A stretch of 41,916 nt of DNA, taken from UHGV virus genome UHGV-0326656, one strand, 5' to 3'. The DNA is from a virus. Each line of letters starts with the position of its first letter. The first letter of the stretch is position 1. Both the position numbers and the translations under genes were made by a program. The notes beneath the pieces are model-generated. The model searched no databases, was not told where the DNA came from, and worked only from the letters and a program-made list of their open reading frames with translations. Shown here piece after piece: positions 1-41,916 of this stretch.

Positions 1-150
1 CCTGGTAAAGCGGCGATTGGTCGTCTGAAAGGTGAGGAACTGGCGCAATATAATTTGTGGCTGGATTATCTGGACGCACTGGAACTGGTCGATACTTCCG
101 GTGCGCCAGATATTGAATGGCCTACTCCTCCGGCAGTTCAGGCCAGATGA
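1..150 (+). CDS. tail fibre assembly protein (Tfa), C-terminal part; 5' end lies outside the window
   Basis: Frame 1 is open to the TGA at 148-150; translation ...GRLKGEELAQYNLWLDYLDALELVDTSGAPDIEWPTPPAVQAR is nearly identical to the C-terminus of the 40731..41162 ORF. Confidence 0.8.
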   Translation, partial: PGKAAIGRLKGEELAQYNLWLDYLDALELVDTSGAPDIEWPTPPAVQAR

Positions 151-724
151 CATCCGGCGCGGTGCTGGTATCCGTTGCCGTCACCGCGTCAATGTAATCC
201 AGCACAGCGTTTAGTCGGGTGGTTTCTGTCTGCGTCAGCTTCCTCCCGGCCTGCAATTTCAGTTGAATCAGACTAATGGAAGCCATTGCAGTATCAATTA
301 GTGACTGTCGCTGTACTTCTGCCGCTTTTACTGCGGCACCATATTGTGCCTCAGTATCTGTCACCCATTTCTCACCATCCCATTTATCGTATGGCGTTAA
401 TGGGACGATAGTGGTTGTATTTTCAGGGTAATCACCCGGAGCTGTGATTTCTTTTGATTCTCCTGTTTCAGTGCTATAGACAAATTCACCACGATGGTCT
501 GGCACATATATCCACGAGTTAAAATCTTCAGAACGGCAAATTGCATAACCAGTTTTGTATGGGCCAGGGGCATCTAAACAGGAACATGCCGGAATGCCGA
601 CACCAATGGCAAGATATTCTGTTGATGTGGAAATATATTCCCGCGTTTCACCATCATAATTATAAACGGTTATGTCTCCCGCTTTTATGGCAATGAGTTC
701 GTTATTTAAGACAACTTTATTCAT
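122..724 (-). CDS. tail fibre assembly protein, inverted-orientation copy (Tfa')
   Basis: 200-aa ORF about 85% identical to the 41134..41736 ORF; convergent with the + strand Tfa, as in Mu G / e14 P invertible segments. Confidence 0.8.
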   Translation of the reverse strand: MNKVVLNNELIAIKAGDITVYNYDGETREYISTSTEYLAIGVGIPACSCLDAPGPYKTGYAICRSEDFNSWIYVPDHRGEFVYSTETGESKEITAPGDYPENTTTIVPLTPYDKWDGEKWVTDTEAQYGAAVKAAEVQRQSLIDTAMASISLIQLKLQAGRKLTQTETTRLNAVLDYIDAVTATDTSTAPDVIWPELPEE

Positions 725-1179
725 CAGGCAGCCCTCACGATATAATTAAAGGCAATGTTACGAGGTCGGTTTTCGTTTGCAGTTGGAACAACTCTGGAAG
801 CATCGAATGTTACTCGCTTTGCATAACCACCTTTAATTGAATCCGATGAAGCATCTCCGATGACGCTGGTTGTAAAAACGCCAGAATCAGAAGGATAGGT
901 ATTGAACCTGACATCCACTAATGCACCAATTATATTTCGAATGGCATCGCCCTGTGATGAAAGCAAGCTACGGTTAGTATCTATTCCTCTTCCGTCATCC
1001 CAGCCACGAATAAACTCACCACGTAAATCTGGCAATTTATTTGTCGGATAAACTTTTGCCAGTTCCGGATACTCTTCGGCAGAAAAAGGCGCACCATTGC
1101 ATTTCAGCCAGCCTGTTGGCGGAGTGGCTGAAGGCCACGGAACAGGCACACCAACGGGTAATGCCGAACCTTCTCCCAA
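724..1179 (-). CDS. alternative tail fibre C-terminal (receptor-binding) segment; no ATG of its own, opens inside the crossover site
   Basis: Frame opens with TTG inside the gix-like site; Gly/Pro-rich tip sequence ending NIAFNYIVRAA; stop overlaps the Tfa' start. Confidence 0.6.
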   Translation of the reverse strand: MGEGSALPVGVPVPWPSATPPTGWLKCNGAPFSAEEYPELAKVYPTNKLPDLRGEFIRGWDDGRGIDTNRSLLSSQGDAIRNIIGALVDVRFNTYPSDSGVFTTSVIGDASSDSIKGGYAKRVTFDASRVVPTANENRPRNIAFNYIVRAA

Positions 1180-1196
1180 ACCAACCTTTTAGAAAA
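1171..1196. other. hix/gix-type 26-bp invertase crossover site
   Basis: TTCTCCCAAACCAACCTTTTAGAAAA matches the remembered hixL site at about 20 of 26 positions; lies between the variable fibre segment and the invertase start; its reverse complement shares core TT and half-site GGTTTGGGAGAA with 40359..40384. Confidence 0.6.
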
Positions 1197-1249
1197 TGCA
1201 GTAATTCCGCTCAGATGGCATGATCCAAGCTTTTTAAGGGGCATTTCTC

Positions 1250-1360
1250 ATGCTCATCGGTTATGTACGTGTGTCAACAAATGACCAGAACACCGCATTG
1301 CAACGAAACGCACTGGAGTGCGCAGGATGTGAACTGATATTCGAGGATAAGATCAGCGGC
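1250..1360 (+). pseudogene. serine DNA invertase (Pin/Gin/Hin family), 5' fragment of 37 codons
   Basis: MLIGYVRVSTNDQNTALQRNALECAGCELIFEDKISG matches the invertase N-terminus including the catalytic-Ser motif; similarity stops after codon 37. Confidence 0.7.
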
Positions 1361-1588
1361 AGATGGGGGGGCAGTCAGGGGGTTGCCCAGCTCAATTTGT
1401 TTGATGAAAACGCGCCACGCCCGGGTAGTGAGAAACTGATGGAAGTGTTGGATCACCTCAACGCCAAAGACGGCAGGGGAACCTTGTACTTTACCAGGCA
1501 GGGTATCCAGCCACAGTTGCAGATGAAACGCGAGATGCTTTCACCTAGATATACAACGAGATATGATGACATATTAAGAGTTAAATAG
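1361..1588 (+). pseudogene. UmuC-like Y-family polymerase subunit, 3' fragment fused in frame to the invertase remnant
   Basis: Tail ...QLNLFDENAPRPGSEKLMEVLDHLNAKDGRGTLYFTRQGIQPQLQMKREMLSPRYTTRYDDILRVK resembles the UmuC/MucB C-terminus as remembered; no upstream umuC body. Confidence 0.5.
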
Positions 1589-1607
1589 AACATCAGCGAG
1601 GTGATAA

Positions 1608-2603
1608 ATGAAAGGGATATATTATGAGAATACTCGAACCTCTATACCGGGGTGGATATCAAACCTTCATGAAACTCAAAGGTTTGGTTACGCTTATGAA
1701 ACAAGTACTCACTTTGTTCATTTATATGGTAAAGCTGAACCTTTTAATGTCATATCAGTTGGCCTTACCGCAATACAAGGTAAAAGTGGGACTCTAAATG
1801 ATTGGGTTATAAATACATTTGGAGCAACTAACATCCAAACATTACAAAATGATATCGGACATGTTGTTGAAGGTGTCTGGAGACCATCTTTATATTATAG
1901 CGATGACATTCAAGGTGCGTTGTTAGTTGATCCGTTCGAGAAAATGTCGTCAGGACAAGCTCTGCGCAATCTTATTAATAAACTCGATGAATTATTTTTG
2001 TACATTGAGCCAAGCATCACAGGTCTGAAAGCATATAGCCATAAATGCAGGGAGCTATTAATTTTGGCTTGTACAGAAGTTGAGAATCAGTGGGTGTCAC
2101 TGATAAAAAAAACAAACCTAAATAATGTAGGGGCTAGATATACAACTAGGGACTATGTACGGCTTGCAGATAAATGTTTTTTAAAAGAATACAAGGTGAA
2201 TTTTAAAAATTACTCAGGCTTAAGAGATTTCACACCATTTTTATCTTGGGTTCCGACTGCCTCTACTGGCTCTTTACCTTGGTACGATGCTTATAATGGA
2301 ACTAAGCATGATAGGGAAGCAGGTTTTAATCTCGCATCATTGGAGAATGTGATGGATGCCTTATCTGCTTGTATAGTATTGTATTGTGTTAAATATGGAC
2401 CTTATGATTTGGTGTCTGGTGGGGATCTGCTTTCAGGAACGTTTAACGAGCATTTTTCTCTTAGTTTCATAAATAGTGATAAAAGTAGCTATTACGTTCC
2501 CGAATTGAATTTTAACGCAAACGCAATAACAGACTTGTGTGTGATTGACTGTTATAGAGAAAAACTCAACAAAGCATGGGTTACAGAACCTCTTGTTTTA
2601 TAG
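1608..2603 (+). CDS. hypothetical protein, 331 aa, AT-rich orphan (candidate accessory/defence gene)
   Basis: Long ORF with GAGGTGA ribosome-binding site 7 nt upstream; markedly AT-rich versus flanks; no family recognised. Confidence 0.65.
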   Translation: MKGIYYENTRTSIPGWISNLHETQRFGYAYETSTHFVHLYGKAEPFNVISVGLTAIQGKSGTLNDWVINTFGATNIQTLQNDIGHVVEGVWRPSLYYSDDIQGALLVDPFEKMSSGQALRNLINKLDELFLYIEPSITGLKAYSHKCRELLILACTEVENQWVSLIKKTNLNNVGARYTTRDYVRLADKCFLKEYKVNFKNYSGLRDFTPFLSWVPTASTGSLPWYDAYNGTKHDREAGFNLASLENVMDALSACIVLYCVKYGPYDLVSGGDLLSGTFNEHFSLSFINSDKSSYYVPELNFNANAITDLCVIDCYREKLNKAWVTEPLVL

Positions 2604-2841
2604 GTAGTATTAATTCAGCACCTTGATTTTTTGTATTTCCCACGGCACGCGTCACGGCGTGCCAGATAAACGTGTCGGCAGACGCTGTACCCTTAGCAAC
2701 AATCTCCTCCACCACTCTACCTACGACATTCTGCCGTATCCACTCACGAGCTGCTTCCGGTGATAGCACCAGCGGCCGGCGATCATGAATATCTACCAGC
2801 CCTTTATCCGCAGCAGTAGTTACAATCAGGAACCCCTCAGC
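2581..2841 (-). pseudogene. yedK: SRAP (YedK-like abasic-site peptidase), C-terminal part, separated from N-terminal part by IS3
   Basis: Minus-strand frame reads AEGFLIVTTAADKGLVDIHDRRPLVLSPEAAREW...GNTKNQGAELI, matching the YedK C-terminus; in frame with 4100..4525 once IS3 and one AGC copy are removed. Confidence 0.8.
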
Positions 2842-2897
2842 TGATCTTACCCAGCAATAGTGGACACGCAGCTAAGTGAGTAAACTCTCAGTCAGAG

Positions 2898-3206
2898 GTG
2901 ACTCACATGACAAAAACAGTATCAACCAGTAAAAAACCCCGTAAACAGCATTCGTCTGAATTTCGCAGTGAAGCCCTGAAGCTTGCTGAACGCATCGGTG
3001 TTACTGCCGCAGCCCGTGAACTCAGCCTGTATGAATCACAGCTCTACAACTGGCGCAGTAAACAGCAAAATCAGCAGACGTCTTCTGAACGTGAACTGGA
3101 GATGTCTACCGAGATTGCACGTCTCAAACGCCAGCTGGCAGAACGGGATGAAGAGCTGGCTATCCTCCAAAAGGCCGCGACATACTTCGCGAAGCGCCTG
3201 AAATGA
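2898..3206 (+). CDS. insE: IS3 transposase OrfA (HTH subunit)
   Basis: [42 protein letters not shown]... recognised as IS3 OrfA. Confidence 0.9.
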
Positions 3207-4069
3207 AGTATGTCTTTATTGAAAAACATCAGGCTGAGTTCAGCATCAAAGCAATGTGCCGCGTGCTCCGGGTGGCCCGCAGCGGCTGGTATACGTGGTG
3301 TCAGCGGCGGACAAGGATAAGCACGCGTCAGCAGTTCCGCCAACACTGCGACAGCGTTGTCCTCGCGGCTTTTACCCGGTCAAAACAGCGTTACGGTGCC
3401 CCACGCCTGACGGATGAACTGCGTGCTCAGGGTTACCCCTTTAACGTAAAAACCGTGGCGGCAAGCCTGCGCCGTCAGGGACTGAGGGCAAAGGCCTCCC
3501 GGAAGTTCAGCCCGGTCAGCTACCGCGCACACGGCCTGCCTGTGTCAGAAAATCTGTTGGAGCAGGATTTTTACGCCAGTGGCCCGAACCAGAAGTGGGC
3601 AGGAGACATCACGTACTTACGTACAGATGAAGGCTGGCTGTATCTGGCAGTGGTCATTGACCTGTGGTCACGTGCCGTTATTGGCTGGTCAATGTCGCCA
3701 CGCATGACGGCGCAACTGGCCTGCGATGCCCTGCAGATGGCGCTGTGGCGGCGTAAGAGGCCCCGGAACGTTATCGTTCACACGGATCGTGGAGGCCAGT
3801 ACTGTTCAGCAGATTATCAGGCGCAACTGAAGCGGCATAATCTGCGTGGAAGTATGAGCGCAAAAGGTTGCTGCTACGATAATGCCTGCGTGGAAAGCTT
3901 CTTTCATTCGCTGAAAGTGGAATGTATCCATGGAGAACACTTTATCAGCCGGGAAATAATGCGGGCAACGGTGTTTAATTATATCGAATGTGATTACAAT
4001 CGGTGGCGGCGGCACAGTTGGTGTGGCGGCCTCAGTCCGGAACAATTTGAAAACCAGAACCTCGCTTAG
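3203..4069 (+). CDS. insF: IS3 transposase OrfB (DDE catalytic subunit)
   Basis: 288-aa ORF overlapping orfA, with integrase-core motifs (...[10 protein letters not shown]..., ...HTDRGGQY...). Confidence 0.9.
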
Positions 4070-4099
4070 GCCTGTGTCCATATTACGTGGGTAGGATCA

Positions 4100-4525
4100 A
4101 GCTTCATCGCCACGTTCAAATGGTGTGCTGCCAATAGCGGCCATGAATATAGGCTGGCCGTCAGCCCTGCGAATGAAGTAGGGCTGTTTTATAATGCCTT
4201 CGCGCTTCCATTCGAACCAACCATCAGCAAAGCAAATTGCACGTCCATGCAACCAGAGAGGTTTGAACATTCGGCTGGTGGCCGCAGTTTCTGAGCGTGC
4301 GTTAATCAGCGGAGGTTTATTCCACCATCCGGGAGCGAATCCCCAGATAACAGGATCGAGGTGCAACTGTTCGTCGCGTTCGCTCAAAAGCAGAACTTTG
4401 GTACCGGGTGCAACGTTGAATCGTCCAATTGGTTCTGGAACGTATGGGATGTCACGCTCAGCTTCTTCTGATAGGAGGGCAAGATAGTCTTCACGCGTCA
4501 TTGATTGGGCGAAACGTCCGCACAT
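4100..4525 (-). pseudogene. yedK: SRAP (YedK-like), N-terminal part, truncated by IS3
   Basis: MCGRFAQSMTREDYLALL...FMAAIGSTPFERGDEA has the Cys2 catalytic start of SRAP/YedK; the frame runs into the IS3 end. Confidence 0.85.
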
Positions 4526-4566
4526 AGAAACCTCCAGTCACCAGACTGAAAGTATAGGGTAGGGAT

Positions 4567-4590
4567 ACAAAAAAGCCCGCATAAGCGGGC
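4567..4590 (-). terminator. rho-independent terminator-like hairpin
   Basis: On the minus strand GCCCGC-TTAT-GCGGGC followed by TTTTTT, between the ssrA fragment and the SRAP start. Confidence 0.45.
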
Positions 4591-4721
4591 TTTCATGTCA
4601 CTCGGGAGCCGCGGCTCCTTTACGTATCCTTTTTTGTCTCCTCACCGTCTAGTCGGTGTCCTGCTGAGACTGCTAACTTCCTGTTTTTGTTAGTGCTGTC
4701 CTGGCACTGTCCAATCATGAT

Positions 4722-4749
4722 TGGTGGAGCTGGCGGGAGTTGAACCCGC
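4722..4749 (-). other. ssrA: 28-nt 3' end of tmRNA (ssrA) ending CCA; att-core-like relic
   Basis: Minus strand reads GCGGGTTCAACTCCCGCCAGCTCCACCA, identical to the ssrA 3' terminus as remembered; upstream sequence does not continue ssrA. Confidence 0.7.
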
Positions 4750-5040
4750 AGACACGTCGTATGCAAGAACTTGCTGCGGCTGGATGGTGGACTTTCGATA
4801 GTGCGAGTATTGAATGATGTCCAGCCGTTATTGATTTTACGTATTTTTTGCATGAAAAGATTAGCACCTCATCCCACCGCTCCTCCATGATTTTACACCA
4901 CTGTCTCTAGAGCTCTGTGTGCCAGAAGCGGAAGTTCATACCTCTAAGTGGATATTTTGTTAAAATATGCCATCAAAATCCTTGCTACCTCATGGTTGAC
5001 AGTGATAAAAGTTGCACAAATTACTGAGAGAGAAATTACA

Positions 5041-5478
5041 ATGAGTGGAGATACCTCTGAGTTTCCTAATAAACTTCCCAGAAAGCCAATTGGTTGGCGT
5101 GAAGAATATAGTGATTTTACAGGTAGTATTATATTCTATATGATATTCCCGTTGCTTCCATTACTTTTTGAGTCAATTAACACAGGAACTCACCCTTCAA
5201 TACAATCATTAACAATTACTGCATCAATATACTCTTTTTCCATCGGTGTATCTTCTCGAGATAAAGCTATTTTTTGCTTAGGGATTTTTTGTGGTTTCAT
5301 TCTCGCTTATCTTTACGGTAAAGTTAGTGAGCCAAAAGTTATTATATATACCTGGTACTATGTAGTTACGGTGATACTACTGGCTGTAATATTTATATTT
5401 CATCTTCTCGAACGATTTAATAAACACGTGGTAGAATGTGAACCTGTTTTCTCCTTTAAGTTTACGAGAGGTATGTAA
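5041..5478 (+). CDS. hypothetical multi-pass membrane protein (alternative start at 4948)
   Basis: AT-rich ORF with several hydrophobic segments (FYMIFPLLPLLF, IFCLGIFCGFILAYLY, VVTVILLAVIFIF); perfect -35 TTGACA about 40 nt upstream; stop overlaps the next start (TAATG). Confidence 0.6.
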   Translation: MSGDTSEFPNKLPRKPIGWREEYSDFTGSIIFYMIFPLLPLLFESINTGTHPSIQSLTITASIYSFSIGVSSRDKAIFCLGIFCGFILAYLYGKVSEPKVIIYTWYYVVTVILLAVIFIFHLLERFNKHVVECEPVFSFKFTRGM

Positions 5479-5945
5479 TGGAGGATATTATATTTATGTA
5501 TGCTGGGTTGATAGTGTCTTCTTTAGCGGCAATTGTAGGCTTAGCTACATCTATCATGCATACTCGTAAAAAAGTTAAAGCTAATGAAGAGCTTGCAACT
5601 GAAATGGCAAAGAGCTTTAGTGAGCTTGAATCTATCAATAAAAGCATAGGGGATTTGGAAGCGACAATTAAAAGGATAGATGAAGATGAATTAAAGTTAA
5701 GAATAGCAATTGAATCTTTAAAGGAAATGACTTCTGATGAAAAAAAAGAATCTAGGGATATGTTGAAAAACATCGTTAATGATGAGGTGTTCATTAAAGT
5801 TCTTCTCGAAAGCTATAAAAAACTGGATACCCAGTCAAAGAAGGAGATTTATTTGACTTTTTCCAAGTCGACAGATAGAGGCCTTTATCGATATATAAAA
5901 AGAATAGCTTCATCAGTACTCGATAACTTAATGGTTAAAATATAA
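5478..5945 (+). CDS. hypothetical protein with N-terminal transmembrane helix and charged coiled-coil-like C-terminal region
   Basis: AT-rich; MEDIIFMYAGLIVSSLAAIVGLATSIM then K/E-rich heptad-like sequence; translationally coupled to the upstream ORF. Confidence 0.65.
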   Translation: MEDIIFMYAGLIVSSLAAIVGLATSIMHTRKKVKANEELATEMAKSFSELESINKSIGDLEATIKRIDEDELKLRIAIESLKEMTSDEKKESRDMLKNIVNDEVFIKVLLESYKKLDTQSKKEIYLTFSKSTDRGLYRYIKRIASSVLDNLMVKI

Positions 5946-6500
5946 ATGCGTGCGCGCGAGATACAATTTCTCGCGCATTGTGTAACCGGCGACAAAACCC
6001 TGTTATCATTATAGCGACCCGTTTAGATGGGCCATTTGTGCCCCAACAGCTTCTGGGTATAGATTTCCTCGGCCCTGTATAGATACTTTGCTAAAGAGTA
6101 TTTTAATGGTATTTTGCTTACGTACCATTCTTCTAACGAATGTCTGCCTTATCCTGTGAGCTGCCTTCGCTCAGCATTGGCCTGTTTCTCGTTGATTTAT
6201 ATACTGCGACACTAACATAGGCGGATATGTCCGCTCCTCGCTCATAACAGACATTCACTACAGTTATGGCAGAAAGGTATGCATGCTGGGTGGGGAAAGT
6301 ATGAAGGAAAAGAAAACTGCTGCGCTGTTTGTCGTCACGTTTATCTTCATTGGCTATGCAAGTCATAATACAAGGTGGGACAAAACTGAGACACATAAGG
6401 CCTCACAATGGCTTGCAAGGCTTTACATGTTTTGATGTGGTGGGACGTGTGAGCGCAGTGTTGATGGGGTAATGCTTTGAATTAGAAGCGGATTCTTATA

Positions 6501-6546
6501 ATTCGTAATGCGAAGGTCGTAGGTTCGACTCCTATTATCGGCACCA
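6501..6546 (+). other. thrW: 3' 46 nt of tRNA-Thr(CGU) (anticodon loop to CCA); prophage att core, not a complete tRNA
   Basis: ATTCGTAATGCGAAGGTCGTAGGTTCGACTCCTATTATCGGCACCA matches the tRNA-Thr(CGU) 3' part; upstream 30 nt cannot form acceptor/D arms; integrase gene starts 15 nt downstream on the opposite strand. Confidence 0.75.
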
Positions 6547-6560
6547 TTTAAATCAATAAG

Positions 6561-7724
6561 TTACACATCATTAGTACCTTCCTTATTTTTTGACTGGGAC
6601 AAATTTGGGACCGATGGGTTCAGGATCGAGTCTATTTGCCGTGCGTGCTCGGTAAGGTGATTAGGTGCAAGGTGAGCATATCGACGAACCATTTCGATAG
6701 ACTCCCAGCCTCCCATTTCCTGTAACACTGACAACGGGACTCCGGCTTGAACCAGCCAACTTGCCCAGGTGTGTCTCAGGTCGTGAAATCTGAAATCATC
6801 AATACCAGCCCGTCTCAGCGCCGCTTTCCAGGCTGTGTTTGCGTCATACCGCATCTTCCTTACTGTTGGCGCTTTCGTTCCGTCTGGTTTGGTACAGCTT
6901 TCCTTGTACACAAATACCCAACGGTGATGATTCCCGATTTGTTTTTTCAAAACGCGACATGCAGTATCATTCAGCGCAACGCCGATTGCGCGGTTTGATT
7001 TACTCTCTTCCGGGTTTATCCATGCCACTCGGCGCTGCATATCTATTTGTTGCCATTCAAGGTTGATGATGTTCGAGCGTCTTAAGCCTGTTGCCAGTGC
7101 AAATTCAACAACAGACTTTAATGGCTCCGGACATTCATCAATCAGCCTTTGTGCTTCATGGGGCTCCAGCCAGCGGATCCGTTTATTCTTTGGTTGAGGC
7201 ACTTTAATAATTGGTGCCTTATCCAGCATTTTCCATTCACGCTCTGCGGCTCTTAGTAGGGCCTTTATAAATGAAAGATGCGTAGCCTTCGTTGCAACGG
7301 ACGCTGGTTTTGGCGTGTATTCTGGAACAGGTTTCCCTTTTTTTCTGCATGCTTCTGCCCTGAGTTTCCAGTTTTCCTCATGACGCCGGTTCGTCATTTT
7401 CTGCATTGCTGAATAAATTTTTGATTCAGTAATGTCTCTTAGTTGCATTCCTGCGAAATGTTGAAGCCAGAATCCGATCCGGCTTTTGTCATCGTCCAGT
7501 GATTTTTTATGTGCTTTCTCTTCAAGCCACCTGACACATGCTTCCTCGAACGTTATATCAGGTATTTCACCAAGTTTACTGACCCGCCATGCTTCAGCCT
7601 TTAGCTTGTCATGGAGTTCTGTCGCCTGCCTTTTGTCCTTTGTTCCAAGAGACTGTTTAAATCTTTTACCGTTCGGCAATGTGAAACTGGCGTACCATAT
7701 TTCACCTCTGCGGAAGAGTGACAT
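6561..7724 (-). CDS. int: tyrosine-type phage integrase
   Basis: 387 aa with C-terminal catalytic region ...[39 protein letters not shown]; adjacent to tRNA fragment. Confidence 0.95.
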
Positions 7725-7951
7725 TTTCTTTCCTCTGTTATGCCATCACCCGCGCTCACCTGGACAGTATGCAGCGGAGACTGAAGAGCCGCAATGCAGG
7801 CTTGTCGTGTTGTGAGGTAAGGAGATTTATTCTTAGTGGGATCTTTGCGTGTTGCCTGAAGACGCCCTGTGCGTATCCAGTTAATAGCAGTCGGTCTGGA
7901 TATCTTGAGAAAATGACAGGCCTCATCGAGTGTGAGGCTGTATGGCTCCAT
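7601..7951 (-). CDS. xis: excisionase / AlpA-like HTH DNA-binding protein
   Basis: [31 protein letters not shown]... typical Xis/AlpA HTH; directly upstream of and overlapping int; C-terminal extent uncertain. Confidence 0.6.
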
Positions 7952-9697: not shown

Positions 9698-9824
9698 TTT
9701 GTTCTCCACGTATATGCGCTGCACCGCGCTGAGTTTGGGTAAAAGGAAGCCCTCACCATCCGGTGATTATTGAGTTAATTACGTTTCCATAAATGCCCCC
9801 GCAGGGGCATTTGCAGTAATGAAA

Positions 9825-10649: not shown

Positions 10650-10714
10650 AATAAGTCCTCACTATATAAAGATATTCAGTGATGAGATAAATAATCAGTT
10701 AATTAAAAACGATA

Positions 10715-12443: not shown

Positions 12444-12454
12444 ATTTATAGGTA

Positions 12455-32571: not shown

Positions 32572-34396
32572 ATTTGAGCTTAAGGCGTTGATCACCGGTG
32601 TCGACAGGCTTTCTCCCGCGCTGTCGAAAATGCAAAAGAAAATCCGGGGATTTAAACGCCAGGCGGAAGAAGCGTCACAGGGTGGGCTGGCGCTTGGTGG
32701 CGGACTGGCAGCGGGTCTGACGCTTTCCCTGAAATCTTATGCCGATCAGGAAAACGCCGCCACCGGGCTGAAAGTCGCCATGATGGATGCGAACGGCGAG
32801 GTTGGAAAGAGCTTTCAGGACATCAATAAACTGGCTATTGGCCTGGGTAACCAGCTACCCGGTACAACGGCTGATTTCCAGAACATGATGCAGATGCTGG
32901 TGCGTCAGGGGATCCCGGCAGAAAACATTCTTGGTGGTGTGGGTAAAGCGACAGCTTATCTTGCGGTACAACTGAAAAAAACACCGGAAGCGGCTGCTGA
33001 GTTTGCTGCAAAGATGCAGGATGCTACCGGAACGGCGTCAGAAGACATGATGGGGCTGTTCGACACTATCCAGAAGGCGTTTTATCTGGGCGTTGACGAT
33101 ACCAACATGTTGTCCTTCTTCACTAAAACCAGTTCTGTTCTGAAGATGGTGAATAAGGACGGACTTCAGGCTGCACAGAGCCTTGCCCCTATCAGCGTCA
33201 TGATGGATCAGATGGGGATGAACGGGGAGTCGGCAGGTAATGCCCTGCGAAAAGTTATCCAGTCCGGATTAAGCGTTAAGAAAATCAGGGACGTCAATAA
33301 AGTCATGGCCCGCCAGAAACTCGGGGTACAGCTCGATTTTACTGACGGCAAAGGAAGTTTTGGCGGTCTTGATAACATGTTCAGGCAACTGGCAAAGCTG
33401 CGAAAACTGACCGACGTTAAGCGAACAGGTGTACTTAAGGCAATATTTGGTGATGATGCCGAAACCCTTCAGGTGGTCAATGCACTAATCGATAAAGGAA
33501 AGGATGGCTACGATCAGATCCAGCAGAAGATGAATAAACAGGCCAGCCTGAATAAACGTGTTCAGGCCCAGCTTGGTACGCTGTCCAACCTGTGGGAGGC
33601 AATGACGGGGACCGCAACTAACGGCCTTGCGGCTATTGGTGGCGCATTTTCTGGTGACGCCAAAAATATCACGCAATGGCTGGGGGAGTTAGGGGAAAAA
33701 TTCACGAAGTTTGCGGATGAAAATCCCCGGGTTATTCGCGGCGTCGTCGGGCTTGCTGCCGGTCTTGCGATTCTGAAACTGGGATTGATGGGCGTTGGCG
33801 GTGCCATCAGTATTGTCAGCAGGATCATGTCGATGACGCCGATTGGAATGATTGCGACGGCGATAGCCCTGGCTGCGGGATTAATTATCACTAACTGGGA
33901 TGTTGTCGGACCTTATTTCAAGAAGCTCTGGGAAACCATTGGTCCTTATTTTGAGGCTGGCTGGGAACTTCTGAAGAAGGTTTTTGCCTGGTCGCCGCTG
34001 GGGATGGTAATCAATAACTGGGGACCGGTTGTTAAGTGGTTTCAGGATATGTGGGACAAGCTGAAGCCAATTATTGAGTGGTTTACCGACAGTTCCGGTG
34101 ACACGGTCGATGCCATTAACTCTGCGCAGTGGGGCGCGGGTGCTTATGATGCTTATGGGACGGGAATACTGGCGCGGGGATACACACCTTATCAGGCGGT
34201 AGATCCGGCTCAGTCAAACAACGCCTCCGATGCCACAGGCTCGAATCCCTTCATGATTAATAAAGCTACCGCGCCAAAAGTTGATGGTGAGATCAAGGTA
34301 TCATTTATAAATATGCCACCAGATATGCGGGTTACGGAAACACGCTCCAGTGGCATTGATATAAATCACGATGTTGGCTATACCCGATTTTGGTAG
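32564..34396 (+). CDS. tail tape measure protein
   Basis: 610 aa, Ala/Gly-rich with hydrophobic stretches (...GLAAGLAILKLGLMGVGGAISIV..., ...MTPIGMIATAIALAAGLIITNW...); follows the chaperone pair. Confidence 0.85.
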   Translation: MAEFELKALITGVDRLSPALSKMQKKIRGFKRQAEEASQGGLALGGGLAAGLTLSLKSYADQENAATGLKVAMMDANGEVGKSFQDINKLAIGLGNQLPGTTADFQNMMQMLVRQGIPAENILGGVGKATAYLAVQLKKTPEAAAEFAAKMQDATGTASEDMMGLFDTIQKAFYLGVDDTNMLSFFTKTSSVLKMVNKDGLQAAQSLAPISVMMDQMGMNGESAGNALRKVIQSGLSVKKIRDVNKVMARQKLGVQLDFTDGKGSFGGLDNMFRQLAKLRKLTDVKRTGVLKAIFGDDAETLQVVNALIDKGKDGYDQIQQKMNKQASLNKRVQAQLGTLSNLWEAMTGTATNGLAAIGGAFSGDAKNITQWLGELGEKFTKFADENPRVIRGVVGLAAGLAILKLGLMGVGGAISIVSRIMSMTPIGMIATAIALAAGLIITNWDVVGPYFKKLWETIGPYFEAGWELLKKVFAWSPLGMVINNWGPVVKWFQDMWDKLKPIIEWFTDSSGDTVDAINSAQWGAGAYDAYGTGILARGYTPYQAVDPAQSNNASDATGSNPFMINKATAPKVDGEIKVSFINMPPDMRVTETRSSGIDINHDVGYTRFW

Positions 34397-34424
34397 CCAG
34401 GATTCCCCTCACAGGTATTGCTGG

Positions 34425-34452
34425 TTGTAAGTCATAAATAGAGTGATAGAAT
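34425..34452 (+). promoter_or_regulatory. sigma70-like promoter for the tail-module moron
   Basis: TTGTAA, 16-bp spacer, TAGAAT; about 35 nt upstream of the 34488 start. Confidence 0.55.
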
Positions 34453-34487
34453 TAATGCACATTTAGAAAAATGTTAATAGGCGAAAA

Positions 34488-35018
34488 ATGAAAGGCTATA
34501 TCACAGCAAGTGTAATTCTTGGAGCAGCGGCTATTTTTTCATCTCTCATAATCTCTGGCAACATCTCCTTTAAAGATGAACATATTATTCAGTTATCTGG
34601 AGGAGCCATAAAACTTGGTGATGTTTATAAAGAAAATAAATTGATAAGTGCAAAGATTATTTTTCCAGATAATCAGGGTGAACAGATTCTTGTTGTCGAC
34701 GGCAATCCTGAAAACTTTAAGGAGGATTTTCAGGAGAAATTAAATAAAGTAATAAAAACTTTAAATGCGTCAAAGAAAAAAGATGAAGAGAAAGTTAGCC
34801 TGGATAATTTAAGTGTTATTGAAGAGTCTAAACTAGAGCTCGTTTCTGCGGTGCGTTACTCTGCTCAGTATGTTCCTATGTTTACTCTGACGCTGGACAA
34901 AAAAGAAATTACCATGCCTAAAAATACGGTAATATTTCCATTTGCCAGCGATGAAACAGCTAAGTATTTAAATGAACAACAGCAAAAGTATAAAGATTCG
35001 TTGTTTCTGACTCGCTAA
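34488..35018 (+). CDS. hypothetical membrane-anchored protein, 176 aa, AT-rich moron
   Basis: N-terminal signal/anchor (ITASVILGAAAIFSSLIISG); own promoter and terminator; interrupts the tail gene cluster. Confidence 0.65.
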   Translation: MKGYITASVILGAAAIFSSLIISGNISFKDEHIIQLSGGAIKLGDVYKENKLISAKIIFPDNQGEQILVVDGNPENFKEDFQEKLNKVIKTLNASKKKDEEKVSLDNLSVIEESKLELVSAVRYSAQYVPMFTLTLDKKEITMPKNTVIFPFASDETAKYLNEQQQKYKDSLFLTR

Positions 35019-35036
35019 TTAATAAAATTCATTACA

Positions 35037-35066
35037 AGGCCACCTTCTAATAGGTGGCTTTTTTAT
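35037..35066 (+). terminator. rho-independent terminator after the tail-module moron
   Basis: GCCACC-TTCTAATA-GGTGGC followed by TTTTTTATTTT. Confidence 0.8.
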
Positions 35067-35079
35067 TTTCGGAGTGTAT

Positions 35080-36408
35080 ATGACGTGGAAAGACAGGCTT
35101 CAGGATGCGTCATTTCGAGGTGTGCCGTTTAAGGTTGAAGAAGAAAGTGCGGGAACCGGTCGCCGTGTGGAAACACATGAATACCCGAACCGCGACAAGC
35201 CCTATACCGAAGATCTGGGAAAAGTCACTTTCCGCCCGTCCATCACAGCTTATGTGGTGGGAGATGACTGCTTTGACCAGCGCGATCGCCTGATTGAAGC
35301 GCTGAATAAACCAGGTCCCGGCACGCTTGTCCACCCGACATATGGTGAGCTGAAAGTCTGTGTTGACGGGGAAGTTCGGGTCAGCACATCGAAAAGTGAA
35401 GGGCGTATTGTCCGCTTTGACCTGAAGTTTGTCGAAGCGGGAGAACTCTCTTACCCCACATCAGGCGTGGCGACGGCGCAGACGCTGATGTCATCCTGTT
35501 CTGCACTGGATGACTGCATCAGTGACAGTTTCAGTAGTTTCAGTATCGATGGCGTGGCAGATTTTGTGCAGAACGACGTCGTCGGTAATGCCAGCACAAT
35601 GCTTGGGTATGTTTCTGATGCGATGAAAGTGGTGGATTCTGCCGTATCGGATGCCGCCAGGCTGTTGCAGGGGGATATCTCGGTACTTCTGCCGCCGCCA
35701 TCGTCAGGCAAAAATTTCGTTGAGCAGGTGCAGAAAATGTGGCGTACCGGGAAACGCCTTTATGGTAACGCCAGCGACCTGGTCACCATGATCAAAACGC
35801 TTTCCGGTGTCAGCCTCGGCAGCGATCTGCAACCGCGCGGCGTCTGGAAAACGGACAGTAAAACCACCGCCACGGCTACGCAGCAGCGTAACGTGGTTGC
35901 CAGCACCCTTCGTACGACCGCAATCAGCGAAGCGACGTATGCCGTCACCCGATTGCCTGCGCCAACAACTTCCGCGGTGATGCAGAATGCCGCAGTGGGG
36001 CAGGCAACAACACCTGCGCAGAGCACTGGCTGGCCTTCCGTCACGCATCCGGCACTGAACAATGCACCGGCGGTGAAAAACACAGTTGACCTGCCGACGT
36101 GGGAAGAACTGACTGACATTCGCGACACACTGAATACGGCAATTGATAAGGAGTTGTCCCGTACAACCAGTGATGCGCTGTTTCTGGCGCTGCGCCGGGT
36201 GAAAGCAGATCTGAATGCGGATATCAACACGCGCCTTGAACAGTCTGCACGGATCATTCAGCGCGCACCGGATGAGGTTTTACCCGCGCTGGTGCTGGCG
36301 GCGACCTGGTTTGATAACGCGGCGCGTGACGCGGACATTATTCGGCGTAATGCCATTACGCATCCCGGCTTTGTGCCGGTGATCCCTCTGAAGGTGCCAG
36401 TGCAATGA
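35080..36408 (+). CDS. DNA circulation protein (Mu N / gp43-like)
   Basis: MTWKDRLQDASFRGVPFKVEEESAGTGRRVETHEYPNRD... characteristic N-terminus; GGAG ribosome-binding site. Confidence 0.85.
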   Translation: MTWKDRLQDASFRGVPFKVEEESAGTGRRVETHEYPNRDKPYTEDLGKVTFRPSITAYVVGDDCFDQRDRLIEALNKPGPGTLVHPTYGELKVCVDGEVRVSTSKSEGRIVRFDLKFVEAGELSYPTSGVATAQTLMSSCSALDDCISDSFSSFSIDGVADFVQNDVVGNASTMLGYVSDAMKVVDSAVSDAARLLQGDISVLLPPPSSGKNFVEQVQKMWRTGKRLYGNASDLVTMIKTLSGVSLGSDLQPRGVWKTDSKTTATATQQRNVVASTLRTTAISEATYAVTRLPAPTTSAVMQNAAVGQATTPAQSTGWPSVTHPALNNAPAVKNTVDLPTWEELTDIRDTLNTAIDKELSRTTSDALFLALRRVKADLNADINTRLEQSARIIQRAPDEVLPALVLAATWFDNAARDADIIRRNAITHPGFVPVIPLKVPVQ

Positions 36409-37484
36409 ACGACAATGTCACGCTACGGGTAAATGGCCGGGAGTGGAATGGCTGGACATCGGTGCGCATCGGTGCCGGTATTGAACGGCTGGCGCGGGAT
36501 TTCAGTGTGGAGATCACCCGCCAGTGGCCGGGTGATGAGGGTATCACCACGCTTCAGCCGCGCATTAAAAACGGTTCAAAAGTGGAGGTGCTGATTGGTG
36601 ATGAGCTGGTGATCACCGGCTGGGTGGAGGCGACGCCCGTTCGTTACGATGCCCGTTCGGTCAGCACCGGTATTGCCGGACGCAGTCTGACCGCTGACCT
36701 GATTGACTGTGCAGCCGAACCGACACAGTTTAACGGACGATCGCTGGTACAGATTGCGCAGGCGCTTGCTGCGCCTTTCGGCATTGAGGTGGTGAACAAC
36801 GGTGCGCCGTCGGGTGTTATTCCTGACATCCAGCCTGATCACGGCGAAACGGTGATTGAGGTGATCAACAAAATACTCGGTCAGCAGCAGGCACTGGCTT
36901 ACGACGACCCGCACGGCAGGCTGGTGATTGGCGGTATTGGCTCAACTCGGGCACATACCGCGCTGGTACTTGGGGAAAACATCCTTTCCTGCGATACGGA
37001 GAAGAGTATCCGGGAGCGGTTTTCAGTTTACCAGGTGGCGGGGCAGCGTGCCGGAAACGACGATGATTTCGGTGAGGCCACCACCACCGCGCTGCGGGCC
37101 CGCACAGAGGACGCATTTATTGCCCGTTACCGTCCGATGTATATCAGGCAGACAGGGCAGGCCACGGGGGCAGGCTGTATTGCGCGTGCTGACTTTGAAG
37201 CCCGACAACGGGCGGCGCGGACGGATGAAACCACTTATGTGGTGCAGGGCTGGCGACAGGGTAACGGTACGCTGTGGCAGCCCAACCAGCGGGTGATTGT
37301 CTTCGATCCGGTCTGTGGTTTCGACAATACCGAACTGCTTGTTTCGGAAGTCACGTTTACTCAGGACCAGAACGGCACCCTGACGGAAATCCGTGTCGGC
37401 CCGCCTGATGCTTATCTGCCTGAACCCGAAGATCCCGGCGCGCGGAAAAAGAAAAAAGCCAGAGTACAGGAGGACCCGTTCTGA
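36405..37484 (+). CDS. baseplate hub protein (Mu P / gp44-like)
   Basis: 359 aa in conserved Mu-like order. Confidence 0.8.
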   Translation: MNDNVTLRVNGREWNGWTSVRIGAGIERLARDFSVEITRQWPGDEGITTLQPRIKNGSKVEVLIGDELVITGWVEATPVRYDARSVSTGIAGRSLTADLIDCAAEPTQFNGRSLVQIAQALAAPFGIEVVNNGAPSGVIPDIQPDHGETVIEVINKILGQQQALAYDDPHGRLVIGGIGSTRAHTALVLGENILSCDTEKSIRERFSVYQVAGQRAGNDDDFGEATTTALRARTEDAFIARYRPMYIRQTGQATGAGCIARADFEARQRAARTDETTYVVQGWRQGNGTLWQPNQRVIVFDPVCGFDNTELLVSEVTFTQDQNGTLTEIRVGPPDAYLPEPEDPGARKKKKARVQEDPF

Positions 37485-38032
37485 TGAGGGCGATTGAAGC
37501 CATGCAGCGACAACTTCTCGGCCTGATTGGGCGGGCCGTGGTGAAAAGCATCAGTGCCGGCACGAAATGTCAGACCGTGGATGTGTCCCTGATTGCCGGT
37601 GAACCCAAAGCCGGGGTTGAACATCTTGAACCCTACGGTTTTACCGCAAGGGCAAACAGCGGTGCGGAAGCGGTGGTGTTGTTTCCGGATGGCGACCGTT
37701 CTCATGCGGTGGTTGTTACGGTGTCGGACCGGCGCTACCGCCTGAAAGGGCTGCAGACGGGTGAGGTGGCTGTCTATGACGATCAGGGGCAGTCCGTGAC
37801 GCTGACCCGGGAGGGGATCGTGGTGGACGGTGCAGGTAAAACGATCACGTTTCGCAATTCACCTAAAGCACGTTTTGAAATGGACCTGGAAGTGACAGGA
37901 CAGGTGAAAGACCTGTGCGACTCCAGCGGCACTACCATGTCAGCGATGCGGCTTGCCTATAACGGGCATCGTCACAGAGAGAACGGTCAGGGCAGTAACA
38001 CCGACAAACCGGATAAAGCGATGGAGGCATGA
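37484..38032 (+). CDS. baseplate spike/assembly protein (Mu gp45, P2 V-like)
   Basis: 182 aa in conserved order. Confidence 0.75.
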   Translation: MRAIEAMQRQLLGLIGRAVVKSISAGTKCQTVDVSLIAGEPKAGVEHLEPYGFTARANSGAEAVVLFPDGDRSHAVVVTVSDRRYRLKGLQTGEVAVYDDQGQSVTLTREGIVVDGAGKTITFRNSPKARFEMDLEVTGQVKDLCDSSGTTMSAMRLAYNGHRHRENGQGSNTDKPDKAMEA

Positions 38033-38457
38033 TGGAACTGTGGCTGACGGTGAACGGTAAACGCACCTGCGCCAGCGCACCGCTGGATCCGCTGACCCGC
38101 GCCGTGGTGATTTCCCTGTTTACCTGGCGGCGGGCGGAGCCTGATGACAACGCCGACGTCCCGATGGGATGGTGGGGGGATACCTGGCCTGCGGTACAGA
38201 ATGACCGTTACGGCTCCCGACTGTGGCTGCTTCAGCGCAGCAAACTGACCAATCAGCTGGTGCAGACGGTAAGGGGGTATATCCGCGAATGCCTGCAATG
38301 GATGATTGATGACGGCGTGGTGTCCCGTATTGATCTGGATATCCGCCGCACCGGGATTAATGAGCTGGGTAACAGTATCACCCTCTGGCGTCGTGACGGA
38401 CCGGTAATGATTTCTTTTGATGATCTGTGGAGTGCGATAACGCATGGCGGACAGTGA
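38029..38457 (+). CDS. baseplate protein (Mu gp46, P2 W / T4 gp25-like)
   Basis: 142 aa in conserved order. Confidence 0.75.
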   Translation: MMELWLTVNGKRTCASAPLDPLTRAVVISLFTWRRAEPDDNADVPMGWWGDTWPAVQNDRYGSRLWLLQRSKLTNQLVQTVRGYIRECLQWMIDDGVVSRIDLDIRRTGINELGNSITLWRRDGPVMISFDDLWSAITHGGQ

Positions 38458-39502
38458 ATTTCAGCGCCCGACGCTGGCAGAAAATATCAGTATGCTCCGT
38501 AACGATTTATTCGCCAGGCTGGACGTCAGCGACACGCTCCGGCGCATGGATGAAGACGTGCGGGCAAAGGTGTATGCGGCGGCGCTGCATACGGTTTACG
38601 GGTACATCGATTATCTGGCAATGAACATTCTGCCTGACCTGTGCGATGAGTCCTGGCTGGCGCGACATGCTGCGATGAAACGGTGTCCGCGCAAGGGGGC
38701 CACGGCTGCCAGCGGGTATATGCGCTGGGAAGGTGTCAGCGATGGCCTGAAGGTGACCGCCGGGAGTGTTATTCAGCGCGATGACCTGGTGCAGTACACG
38801 GCAACTGCCGATGCAACCAGCTCCGGTGGTGTCCTGCGCGTGCCGATCGCCTGCTCAAATGCAGGCGCGGTCGGTAACGCTGACGACGGTACGGCATTAA
38901 TCCTGGTCACGCCGGTGAATGGTCTGCCGTCTTCCGGTGTGGCTGACACCCTGACAGGCGGATTTGATACTGAAGAGCTGGAAACGTGGCGCGCCCGCGT
39001 CATTGAGCGGTATTACTGGACGCCGCAGGGTGGGGCTGACGGGGACTATGTCGTCTGGGCTAAAGAAGTGCCCGGCATTACCCGCGCATGGACATACCGT
39101 CACTGGATGGGAACGGGAACTGTCGGTGTGATGATTGCCAGCAGTGACCTGATTAATCCCATTCCGGAAGAATCAACGGAAACGGCGGCAAGACAACATA
39201 TCGGGCCACTGGCCCCGGTGGCAGGCTCTGATTTGTATGTGTTCAGGCCGGTGGCACATACGGTGGATTTTCATATCCGCGTGACGCCGGACACACCGGA
39301 AATACGGGCTGCCATCACCGCGGAGTTGCGTTCGCTCCTGCTGCGTGATGGTTATCCGCAGGGAGAACTGAAGGTATCGCGTATCAGTGAGGCGATTTCC
39401 GGTGCGAACGGGGAATACAGCCATCAGTTGCTTGCACCGGCAGACAATATCTCCATTGCAAAAAATGAACTGGCGGTACTGGGGACGATTTCATGGACGT
39501 GA
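38444..39502 (+). CDS. baseplate J-like protein (Mu gp47)
   Basis: 352 aa in conserved order. Confidence 0.8.
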
Positions 39503-40077
39503 CAAACGATGATTACATCCGTCTGTTGTCGGCACTGTTGCCCCCCGGTCCGGCGTGGTCAGCCAGCGATCCGGCGATTGCCGGTGCGGCACCGTCATTA
39601 ACCCGCGTTCATCAGCGTGCGGATGCCCTGATGCGGGAGCTGGATCCGCGCACCACCACTGAACTGATAAACCGCTGGGAGCGTCTGTGCGGTCTGCCGG
39701 ATGAATGTATTCCCGCAGGGACACAGACCCTTCGCCAGCGTCAGCAACGGCTGGATGCGAAGGTTAACCTGGCGGGCGGCATCAACGAGAATTTTTATCT
39801 TGCACAGCTTGCTGCCCTGGGCAGACCAGACGCTACCATCACGCGATACGACAAAAGCACGTTCACCTGCTCATCGGCCTGTACTGACGCGGTGAATGCG
39901 CCGGAATGGCGGTATTACTGGCAGGTCAACATGCCAGCCGCCACAAACACCACCTGGATGACATGTGGCGATCCCTGTGATTCCGCGCTGCGTATCTGGG
40001 GCGACACCGTTGTCGAATGTGTGCTTAACAAACTCTGCCCGTCGCATACCTACGTAATTTTTAAATATCCGGAGTAA
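39493..40077 (+). CDS. tail protein (Mu gp48 / P2 I-like, YmfQ-type)
   Basis: 194 aa immediately upstream of the tail fibre gene. Confidence 0.7.
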
Positions 40078-40080
40078 TCC

Positions 40081-40728
40081 ATGCATCGTATAGACACGAA
40101 AACCGCGCAGAAGGATAAGTTCGGCGCGGGTAAGAACGGTTTTACCCGTGGTAACCCCCAGACAGGCACGCCTGCCACCGATCTGGATGATGACTACTTT
40201 GACATGTTGCAGGAAGAACTCTGCAGCGTGGTGGAGGCATCCGGTGCCAGCCTGGAGAAGGGGCGAAACGACCAGTTGCTTACCGCGCTTCGTGCTCTGC
40301 TGTTAAGCCGCAAGAATCCGTTTGGTGATATCAAATCGGATGGCACGGTGAAAATGGCTCTCGAAAACCTTGGTTTGGGAGAAGCGGCAAAACGGAATGT
40401 GGGGACAGGAGAAAATCAGGTACCGGATATGAACAACTTTGGTAACTCATTGACCGCCAATGGATACCAGAAATTACCTGGGGGGATGATTATTCAATGG
40501 GGGAGTTTTTCTGTCTCACCAACCGGAGGAAGTGTTGGAACAGTTGATATAACATTACCTGTAGCTTTCCCTGCTGCTTGTCGTTCGGTAAACGCTCTTA
40601 TTTCAACTAATGATCCTTCTGCCCGTTCTGTGGGCTTTGATATTGGAAGTACCAACAGAACTAAAATCAGATTTACTTACACTTCTGCTACAACAAATTC
40701 AATTTACTGGATGGCTGTGGGGTATTAA
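40081..40728 (+). CDS. tail fibre protein with conserved N-terminus and swappable C-terminal tip
   Basis: [24 protein letters not shown]... fibre N-terminus; composition turns AT-rich after the crossover site at 40359-40384. Confidence 0.8.
40359..40384. other. hix/gix-type crossover site inside the tail fibre gene (left boundary of the invertible segment)
   Basis: CTCTCGAAAACCTTGGTTTGGGAGAA: two 12-bp half-sites around a TT core; right half-site identical to the reverse complement of 1171-1196; encodes ...ALENLGLGE... at the constant/variable junction. Confidence 0.6.
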
Positions 40729-40730
40729 CT

Positions 40731-41162
40731 ATGGAAAAGACATATTATTTTAATCCCTCTGATTCGGGATTTTATATTTCACCAGATAGCCAAACCATTC
40801 CTGAGAACGCTACGAAAATAAACTTTACTATTTATTCTGAGTTCGCAGGAGTTGCATGGCCTGATGGTAAAATACTTGGTTCAGATAAAAATGGTTTTCC
40901 AGCATGGCAGGATGCGCCACCACTTACCAGCGAAGAATTAATCTCAATCGCTGAATCAAATAAACAGCGATTAGTTAATCAGGCCAACGAATACATGAAC
41001 AGTAAACAATGGCCTGGTAAAGCGGCGATTGGTCGTCTGAAAGGTGAGGAACTGGCGCAATATAATTTGTGGCTGGATTATCTGGACGCACTGGAACTGG
41101 TCGATACTTCCAGTGCGCCAGATATTGAATGGCCTACGCCTCCGGCAGTTCAGGCCAGATGA
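40731..41162 (+). CDS. tail fibre assembly protein (Tfa)
   Basis: 143 aa immediately after the fibre gene; C-terminal 50 aa shared with the inverted copy. Confidence 0.85.
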   Translation: MEKTYYFNPSDSGFYISPDSQTIPENATKINFTIYSEFAGVAWPDGKILGSDKNGFPAWQDAPPLTSEELISIAESNKQRLVNQANEYMNSKQWPGKAAIGRLKGEELAQYNLWLDYLDALELVDTSSAPDIEWPTPPAVQAR

Positions 41163-41736
41163 CATCCGGCGCGGTGCTGGTATCTGTTGCCGTCACCGCG
41201 TCAATGTAATCCAGCACAGCGTTAAGTCTGGTTGTTTCTGCCTGCGTCGGTTTACGTCCGGCCTGCAATTTCAGTTGAATCAGACTGATGGAAGCCATTG
41301 CTGCATCAATCAGTGACTGGCGCTGTGCTTCTGCCGCTTCTACTGCGGCACCGTATTGTGCCTCAGTATCTGTCACCCATTTTTCACCATCCCATTTATC
41401 GTATGGCGTTAACGGGGCGATAGTGGTTGTATTTTCGGGATAGTCGCCTAGTGCTGTGATTTCTTTGGCATCTCCCGTTTCGGTGTTATAGACTATTTCA
41501 CCTCGATGGTCTGACACATATTCCCATGATTTTAAATCCACAGAACGGAAAATTGTATAACCAGCCTTATATGTACCAGGAGCGTCTAAACAGGAATATG
41601 CAGGGATACCGACACCAATGGCAAGATATTCATTTGAAGTGGAAATATATTCCCGTGTTTCGCCATCATAGTTATAGACGGTAATATTTCCCGCCTTTGT
41701 AGCAATAAACTCGCTATTTAATACAGCGTTATCCAT
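41134..41736 (-). CDS. tail fibre assembly protein, inverted-orientation copy (Tfa')
   Basis: 200 aa, convergent with Tfa; about 85% identical to the 122..724 ORF. Confidence 0.85.
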   Translation of the reverse strand: MDNAVLNSEFIATKAGNITVYNYDGETREYISTSNEYLAIGVGIPAYSCLDAPGTYKAGYTIFRSVDLKSWEYVSDHRGEIVYNTETGDAKEITALGDYPENTTTIAPLTPYDKWDGEKWVTDTEAQYGAAVEAAEAQRQSLIDAAMASISLIQLKLQAGRKPTQAETTRLNAVLDYIDAVTATDTSTAPDVIWPELPEA

Positions 41737-41737
41737 T

Positions 41738-41916
41738 ATGCAGCCCTCACGATATAGTTAAATGCAATATTCCGTGGGCGAGTATCGGCAGGAACGACAT
41801 ACATTTCACCAATTGCCCGCTCATTAGAGTTGTTCAGCAATAGGCTTGAGCCATTACTGTCATGACCCGTAATTAAGATATCATTGGACAAAATAAGTGA
41901 GCCCGTACCTGCAGGA
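41738..41916 (-). CDS. alternative tail fibre C-terminal segment, partial (runs off the window)
   Basis: Minus-strand frame ...NDILITGHDSNGSSLLLNNSNERAIGEMYVVPADTRPRNIAFNYIVRAA with stop overlapping the Tfa' start; same terminal motif as the 724..1179 ORF. Confidence 0.7.

Follow-up and report, generated by a model that had tools for sequence, protein, structure and literature searches.

SfV-like phages, their attachment at the tRNA-Thr gene thrW, the morons they carry beside the phage attachment site (attP), the Din-family invertible tail-fibre cassettes and their decay, and tandem lysogeny at thrW are all known already. In the Sf phages the morons lie between the tail-fibre genes and attP (PMC3306764), and SfI has been shown experimentally to integrate in tandem at attL of SfX, at thrW (Sun et al. 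2011, PMC3306764). Din-family switches, among them Mu G/Gin, P1 C/Cin, e14 P/Pin and those of P2-like phages such as pro483, have two inverted 26-bp crossover sites, two alternative fibre C-termini in opposite orientation, each with its own Tfa chaperone gene, and a recombinase gene just outside the segment. The invertases Gin, Cin, Pin and Hin are interchangeable. Here we analyse UHGV virus genome UHGV-0326656, a stretch of 41,916 nucleotides (nt) that is called the window throughout and that an earlier note had read as two related prophages in tandem with diverged tail-fibre cassettes. Comparison with related loci indicates that both arms of the window belong to one phage; the window reads as a complete SfV-like temperate phage genome in attP (circular) order that ends in a piece of a P2-type fibre cassette. 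The biological weight of the question of topology is small, as every component has been described already, whichever topology holds.

The argument turns on the two ends of the window. Self-BLAST of the window aligns positions 1–756 with 41013–41768 at 88.76% identity (756 nt, E = 0) as the sole direct repeat, and no other internal repeat was found. The offset of 41,012 gives a unit of 41,012 bp, and the window amounts to one such unit plus 904 nt, with host DNA at neither end. The pairing of 1–900 with 41016–41916 at 85–90% identity in the earlier note therefore captured a real repeat, in a register that was off by 3 nt and over a length about 150 nt too long. In an ungapped comparison, 1–99 equals 41013–41111 with 0 mismatches, the earliest mismatch falls at position 100, 85 mismatches lie within 100–756, and from 757 to 904 the end homology is gone (7–23 matches per 50 nt). 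We read 41013–41111 as an exact wrap-around of 1–99, followed by 805 nt of another cassette allele. The earlier statement that the ends are not a circular overlap fails on this point, since the overlap opens with 99 exact bases and the divergence is limited to the 805-nt P2-type piece. The window opens inside the phage’s own 1.84-kb invertible tail-fibre segment, and an inverted-repeat search of both window ends turned up only known cassette features. Translation confirms, as had been noted before, that both ends carry a Tfa C-terminus, an inverted Tfa′ and a fibre-tip fragment terminating in PRNIAFNYIVRAA; at the left end, the Tfa C-terminus spans 1–121. Simple inversion of the segment is ruled out as the cause of the repeat, both copies having the same orientation.

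Related prophage loci (given L numbers below) were recovered by exact-protein look-ups, and these relatives carry the phage as a single prophage between proA-thrW and paoD (yagQ). Look-ups with both Tfa′ alleles and with the int, PAPS-reductase-like, 155-amino-acid (aa) cargo and 261-aa genes returned single lysogens or P2-like prophages only. The single lysogen L008 (GCA_022489165.1), with a paoD flank, has 0 mismatches to the window over both 1–2842 and 31134–41111 (9,978 nt), and directly after the latter it has 89 mismatches to 41112–41780. Over 1–6564, the shared IS3 insertion included, it is 99.95% identical, and host DNA follows; the right ends of L008, L047 and L002 together are 99.92–99.95% identical to this arm (3–5 mismatches). 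For the other arm, the single lysogens L034, L035 and L036, with a proA flank, match 6501–19170 (12,670 nt) with 0 mismatches, and L058 is colinear with 9363–30151 at 99.6%. Both L035 and L002 come from the complete chromosome CP099017.1, where they represent opposite ends of a single prophage flanked by proA on one side and by paoD on the other, and the tail module of L002 differs from window 31134–41111 at one position. Because L008, L034–L036 and L002 carry both arms as one prophage, the ‘prophage A’ (1–6564) and ‘prophage B’ (6565 onwards) of the earlier note are the same phage, and the window would represent a single SfV-like phage in circular permutation. The anatomy given in that note (fibre cassette, dead pin, IS3-carrying cargo, core, int, phage and second cassette in a roughly 41-kb unit) stands. 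Its two diverged prophages in tandem do not, given the absence of mismatches to L008 and L034–L036, and that claim is probably an assembly artefact.

The sequence beyond the wrap-around belongs to a different lineage. Positions 41112–41916 are 99.5–100% identical to cassettes of P2-like prophages: L010–L012 and L014–L017 have 0 mismatches over 40797–41916, and L013 has 0 over its covered part, 41039–41916. Within 40392–40796, seven positions separate the P2-like cassettes from the window, which has the alleles of its own lineage there. The lineage switch is thus placed inside 40797–41111, and the window start lies exactly 99 nt upstream of the first difference between A-type and P2-type cassettes. 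The two Tfa′ products (122–724 and 41134–41736) agree at 171 of 201 aligned positions, counting the 200 aa and the stop, and an exact match to the A-type protein occurs in the SfV-like prophages L002–L009. The exact P2-type Tfa′ occurs on 16 contigs of a large collection, P2-like wherever the context is visible and SfV-like in 0 cases. Among complete E. coli genomes, no SfV-like tail module was found joined to P2-type sequence through 41916.

In one P2-like relative, L013 (GCA_014248495.1, AAVLZZ010000074.1), the prophage contig ends 73 nt before the cassette divergence, at the equivalent of 41039. This break shows that the shared repeat disrupts real assemblies, and it suggests the presence of another cassette with the repeat in the L013 genome.

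The middle of the window has its own bearing on topology. Positions 6150–6950 run continuously from the cargo end through the att core into int, which is the attP order of the phage, and the window alone therefore cannot separate a tandem from a circular arrangement. Colinearity with the window extends across this hybrid junction in three circular records of phage size: pCE-O153H30-A (NZ_CP172337.1, 44.8 kb, RefSeq), p4D31-5 (CP085522.1, 41.5 kb) and CP077666.1 (38.9 kb) share the order int, attP, cargo, (pin) and fibre cassette. These ‘plasmid’ records differ in closing on themselves, whereas the window ends in a non-matching 805-nt piece, and in carrying their own cargo, such as Avs2 with an intact pinE in pCE-O153H30-A. 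The junction occurs in one piece in two of 5,426 complete E. coli genomes.

One chromosomal instance is ET201 (L030, NZ_CP100994.1, 3590000–3625000), where an SfV-like prophage with cassette, dead recombinase and DUF262 cargo leads into the core, int and a lambda-like prophage that carries bet/exo/gam, P, ren and Q. The assembly is noisy, with many frameshifted genes, and we regard the array at thrW as a genuine tandem. In L038 (11672–14183), proA does not follow int; its place is taken by a second integrase of 466 aa (Arm-DNA-bind_3 plus Phage_integrase) and an unrelated island, making this another heterologous array at thrW. The SfI–SfX lysogen and the ET201 array resemble the window in that the cargo end of one phage leads through the att core to int of the next. 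They differ in that two distinct phages and both host junctions are demonstrated there, whereas the window offers one unit plus 0.9 kb, with both arms from one phage.

We lean, with modest confidence, towards the reading that the window is an assembly contig of a cyclic or circular phage unit with a chimeric end. The phage would form the cycle as excised, replicating or virion DNA or, less likely, as identical tandem copies, and the assembly path would leave it through the 315-nt stretch perfectly shared with a P2-like prophage or phage in the sample. An exact 99-nt overlap with divergence from base 100 is what a de Bruijn graph with k = 99, a commonly used k-mer size, might produce: the path would round the cycle, be barred from re-using its first edge and exit by the other branch. 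The ‘diverged second cassette’ would then not belong to a second SfV-like prophage. Two marks of such an artefact are present, as the window start overlaps an internal position by 99 nt and the foreign part is the allele of another element. A cyclic unit is favoured over an array because the window comprises one unit plus 904 nt without host DNA, with its 99-nt start and its lineage switch in a shared stretch, properties that lack a biological reason in a chromosomal array cut at random. A short-read contig of a chromosomal tandem pair would also be expected to break at the att core, the meeting point of three paths (attL, attR and hybrid junction) of equal coverage, and the window runs through it.

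Several points weigh against this reading. Both the contig and k = 99 are inferences, and a repeat boundary that would stop an assembler at 41916 was looked for and not found; this position falls within the hypervariable tip sequence, some 280 nt short of the P2-type crossover. The window also crosses a full IS3, which short reads could do only if IS3 were single-copy in the sample; the L008 draft crosses the equivalent IS3, as would an assembly from a phage lysate. A real molecule could acquire an identical mosaic by homologous recombination inside the 315-nt stretch, and true tandem arrays at thrW exist.

These last two points meet in an alternative that is possible but on balance unlikely, a true tandem pair of one SfV-like phage at thrW in which copy 2 acquired the P2-type allele in the distal part of its cassette, whether by homologous recombination with a P2-like prophage resident in the strain or by gene conversion from it. 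An array would yield the cargo–core–int junction equally well; the 315 nt of identity are more than long enough for homologous recombination, and mosaicism between SfV-like and P2-like phages is evident in the cassette alleles. The family is known to integrate in tandem at thrW from the case of SfI at attL of SfX (PMC3306764), and the complete ET201 genome and the integrase island beside int in L038 are in line with it. However, the pair would need two rare events, duplication and then conversion, and gives no reason for the 99-nt start offset or for a length of one unit plus 0.9 kb. The junction is rare in one piece (2/5,426, as above), int stands next to the 155-aa cargo gene in none of its ten distinct neighbourhoods, and the join of an SfV-type tail to P2-type sequence has no precedent in the collections searched. 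We consider doubtful the fuller proposal of two head-to-tail copies, the second with a P2-like receptor-binding half and both cassettes flipped in trans by a P2-like invertase, which would give up to four fibre specificities per lysogen. A true tandem pair would amount to natural fibre-cassette exchange between unrelated chassis, SfV-like and P2-like, which would be an incremental addition.

The arrangement proposed originally, in which A and B are distinct though related phages integrated in tandem, both bring a diverged cassette of their own, and A continues upstream of the window as an independent phage, is highly improbable. It would account for cassette copies that are 88.8% identical over 756 nt, and ET201 shows that heterologous tandem pairs occur, but the right ends of L008, L047 and L002 (99.92–99.95%) supply ‘A’ while the L008 tail is identical to ‘B’ over 31134–41111 and that of L002 has one difference. 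The chromosome of L002 in addition carries the early region of ‘B’ without a mismatch (L035), and the divergence is confined to one 805-nt P2-like patch. Multi-segment inversion regions exist in other elements, such as Min of p15B. We give very little credence to a compound region of this kind that holds both Tfa′–tip pairs across a short unsequenced gap between 41916 and 1: the two copies share an orientation and could lie in series, yet related single prophages have a simple 1.84-kb segment in which 41111 runs straight into the sequence of position 100, two such pairs in series were seen at no locus fetched, and the exact 99-nt overlap is left unexplained. A chromosomal rearrangement between SfV-like and P2-like prophages was rejected, as it cannot create the cargo–core–int adjacency. 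A cargo–core–int junction together with a diverged terminal repeat in a phage-sized sequence is no evidence for tandem prophages, and paralogous fibre cassettes of co-resident phages can mimic diverged duplicates in assemblies.

The fibre cassette itself has the Din-type layout, with two inverted crossover sites, both intact, and opposed Tfa/Tfa′ and tip genes (Table 1). Where Din-family switches have a functional serine invertase beside the segment, the gene of the window phage is cut to about 38 N-terminal residues. It retains just Resolvase-profile positions 2–46 of 145, fused in frame to the DUF4113 fragment, which bears out the earlier description of the invertase as destroyed; RefSeq annotates the locus likewise, as partial genes. 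The identical pin–DUF4113 junction is seen in L003–L006, L008, L009 and TB06052, and its occurrence in many genomes indicates that the lesion is old and inherited.

Because the adjacent invertase keeps only its N-terminal residues, inversion must be driven in trans, and flipping of the segment would depend on a related invertase, which a P2-like or e14-like prophage, for instance, might supply. L006 and L046 have the identical dead-pin junction with the 1.84-kb fibre segment in opposite orientation (9532–11367 in L006 and 853–2909 in L046, against window 40370–41012 plus 1–1193). L006 is 100% identical to window 1170–2842, and its inversion breakpoints map to 40370–40384 at the left site and 1170–1193 at the right site. 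If pin was truncated only once, these orientations would therefore reflect inversion by an invertase in trans; taken together, they imply either a trans-acting invertase or an inversion older than the pin lesion. The trans inversion proposed by the earlier note is thus sound in principle, as L006 illustrates. In all P2-type relatives an intact 188-aa invertase begins about 350 nt beyond the equivalent of the window end, although P2 tail genes follow it there, with no second copy of the cargo of the SfV-like phage.

At the other junction, the 46-nt tRNA-Thr part of the core ends in CCA and directly adjoins the 3′ end of int. ARAGORN found no full tRNA in the window and Rfam returned nothing, in agreement with the earlier description of a 46-nt core rather than a full tRNA. 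Loci of attL type match the window from 6501 on and those of attR type match through 6564; Int recombines this 64-nt core with thrW, with morons placed between the fibre cassette and attP. Because the morons sit there (PMC3306764), int and cargo come to lie at opposite ends of the prophage. The identical Int protein occurs in thousands of assemblies and stands beside proA in ten of ten places among the matches listed; the ten integrase neighbourhoods always continue into host or island DNA, and none has the hybrid cargo–core–int junction. The ten distinct neighbourhoods of the 155-aa cargo gene have non-prophage host or island DNA next to it. An exact 116-nt pattern of the attP junction gave 0 matches in GTDB representative genomes and two in IMG/VR, each in a degraded gtr-type element that retains a remnant of int, and a pattern of the IS3 and cargo junction gave 0 matches in IMG/VR and 0 in JGI metagenomes.

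Table 1 Features of the window, in order of position
Feature	Position	Strand	Basis
Wrap-around overlap, exact copy of 41013–41111, in 3′ end of 143-aa tfa	1–99	+	Ungapped comparison
Distal half of invertible fibre segment	1–1196		Crossover-site sequence
Tfa′, 200 aa, ‘A-type’ allele, inverted alternative tail-fibre assembly gene	122–724	-	Pfam Caudo_TAP, E = 7e-31
Inverted alternative fibre tip, 151 aa, Collar domain	724–1179	-	Pfam Collar, E = 5e-15; translation
Right crossover site TTCTCCCAAACCAACCTTTTAGAAAA	1171–1196	+	Single match in window, 0 expected by chance
Dead invertase: N-terminal ~38 aa of Pin-type serine recombinase plus DUF4113 (UmuC C-terminal) fragment	1250–1588	+	Pfam, translation
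Cargo gene, 331 aa, of no known family	1608–2603	+	Without Pfam or PADLOC match
IS3 insertion splitting SRAP (YedK-like) cargo gene	2843–4099	+	IS3 annotation
SRAP gene remnant	4097–4525	-	Pfam SRAP, profile 1–136 of 214
Cargo gene pair, 176 aa and 155 aa, function unassigned by family search	4948–5945	+	Without significant family match
att core: 46-nt 3′ tRNA-Thr (thrW) part, 6501–6546, plus 18 nt common to attL and attR	6501–6564	+	Sequence
Tyrosine integrase, 387 aa, thrW-integrating SfV family	6561–7724	-	Pfam Phage_integrase, E = 3e-48
Rest of phage: xis-like gene, early/immunity region, replication, Q-type antiterminator, lysis, terminase, HK97-type head, Mu-type contractile tail, baseplate	7725–40080	.	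Gene and Pfam tables of identical or colinear loci
Tail fibre gene, 215 aa; constant N-terminus, variable C-terminus within invertible segment	40081–40728	+	Pfam Gp53-like_C
Left crossover site in fibre gene, inverted copy of 1171–1196, 21/26 positions matching	40358–40383	-	Sequence
Tfa, 143 aa	40731–41162	+	Pfam Caudo_TAP, E = 5e-30
315-nt stretch identical in A-type and P2-type cassettes	40797–41111	+	P2-lineage mismatches end at 40796, A-lineage mismatches start at 41112
Foreign ‘P2-type’ end: most of Tfa′ (41134–41736, -, 200 aa) and last 60 codons of different fibre tip	41112–41916	.	Comparison to L008, L010–L017

The phage is SfV/SfII/SfIV-like and temperate; it combines lambdoid early genes with a head of HK97 type and a contractile tail of Mu type, and it integrates at thrW. 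The joined head and tail/baseplate modules are marked by the Pfam families of identical or colinear loci: Peptidase_S78, Phage_capsid, Phage_portal, Phage_sheath, Phage_Mu_Gp45, GP46, Baseplate_J, Phage_Mu_Gp48 and DNA_circ_N. The best phage match to window 4100–29000 is vB_EcoM-689R6 (68% coverage, 97% identity); SfV, SfII and SfIV cover 41–45% of the same interval at 95–96% nucleotide identity, in the int/att region and early genes. They share with the window phage the position of the morons between the tail-fibre genes and attP (PMC3306764). The window phage differs from them in its cargo, the 331-aa gene, IS3-disrupted SRAP gene and 176/155-aa pair instead of gtrABC, and in its invertible fibre cassette with a dead pin. 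The window sequence was not found among INPHARED phages, PLSDB or RefSeq complete E. coli genomes, and PADLOC found no credible defence match in the cargo.

Within the cargo, the 331-aa gene lies at the equivalent place in L002–L009, and L003–L005 lack 2843–4099 and have an intact 227-aa SRAP gene. The identical IS3 insertion is present in L008, L047 and CP099017.1 (the last with an extra IS66) and absent from L003–L005 and L009, which marks a sub-lineage. Across relatives, the cargo varies in the region that separates attP from the invertase of the fibre cassette, at 1250–6500 in the window, 39222–43676 in L031 (NZ_CP172337.1), 15704–17591 in L030 (ET201), 6327–8479 in L007 and about 3191–4699 in L044, L045, L049 and L051. 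The cargo that relatives carry there includes Avs2, a DUF262 protein, a HEPN protein with an M78/HTH pair, and a 502-aa protein without known function. No gtr (O-antigen modification) cargo was found next to attP in the window, such cargo being a feature of the Shigella serotype-converting subset only. L018 (7735–9737) and L019, the two IMG/VR UViGs from isolate genomes with the exact 116-nt junction, have only about 450 nt of int left, and the open reading frames upstream, of 120 and 305 aa, match gtrA and gtrB in size. Both contigs resemble degraded serotype-conversion elements of Shigella type.

The early region also varies between relatives. A 292-aa gene of the PAPS-reductase family lies at 8292–9170 on the minus strand, between xis and a DUF2303 gene. 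It is confined to a subset of relatives, with a 292-aa PAPS_reduct gene at the equivalent place in L024, and most other relatives have genes of 101 and 120 aa at this position.

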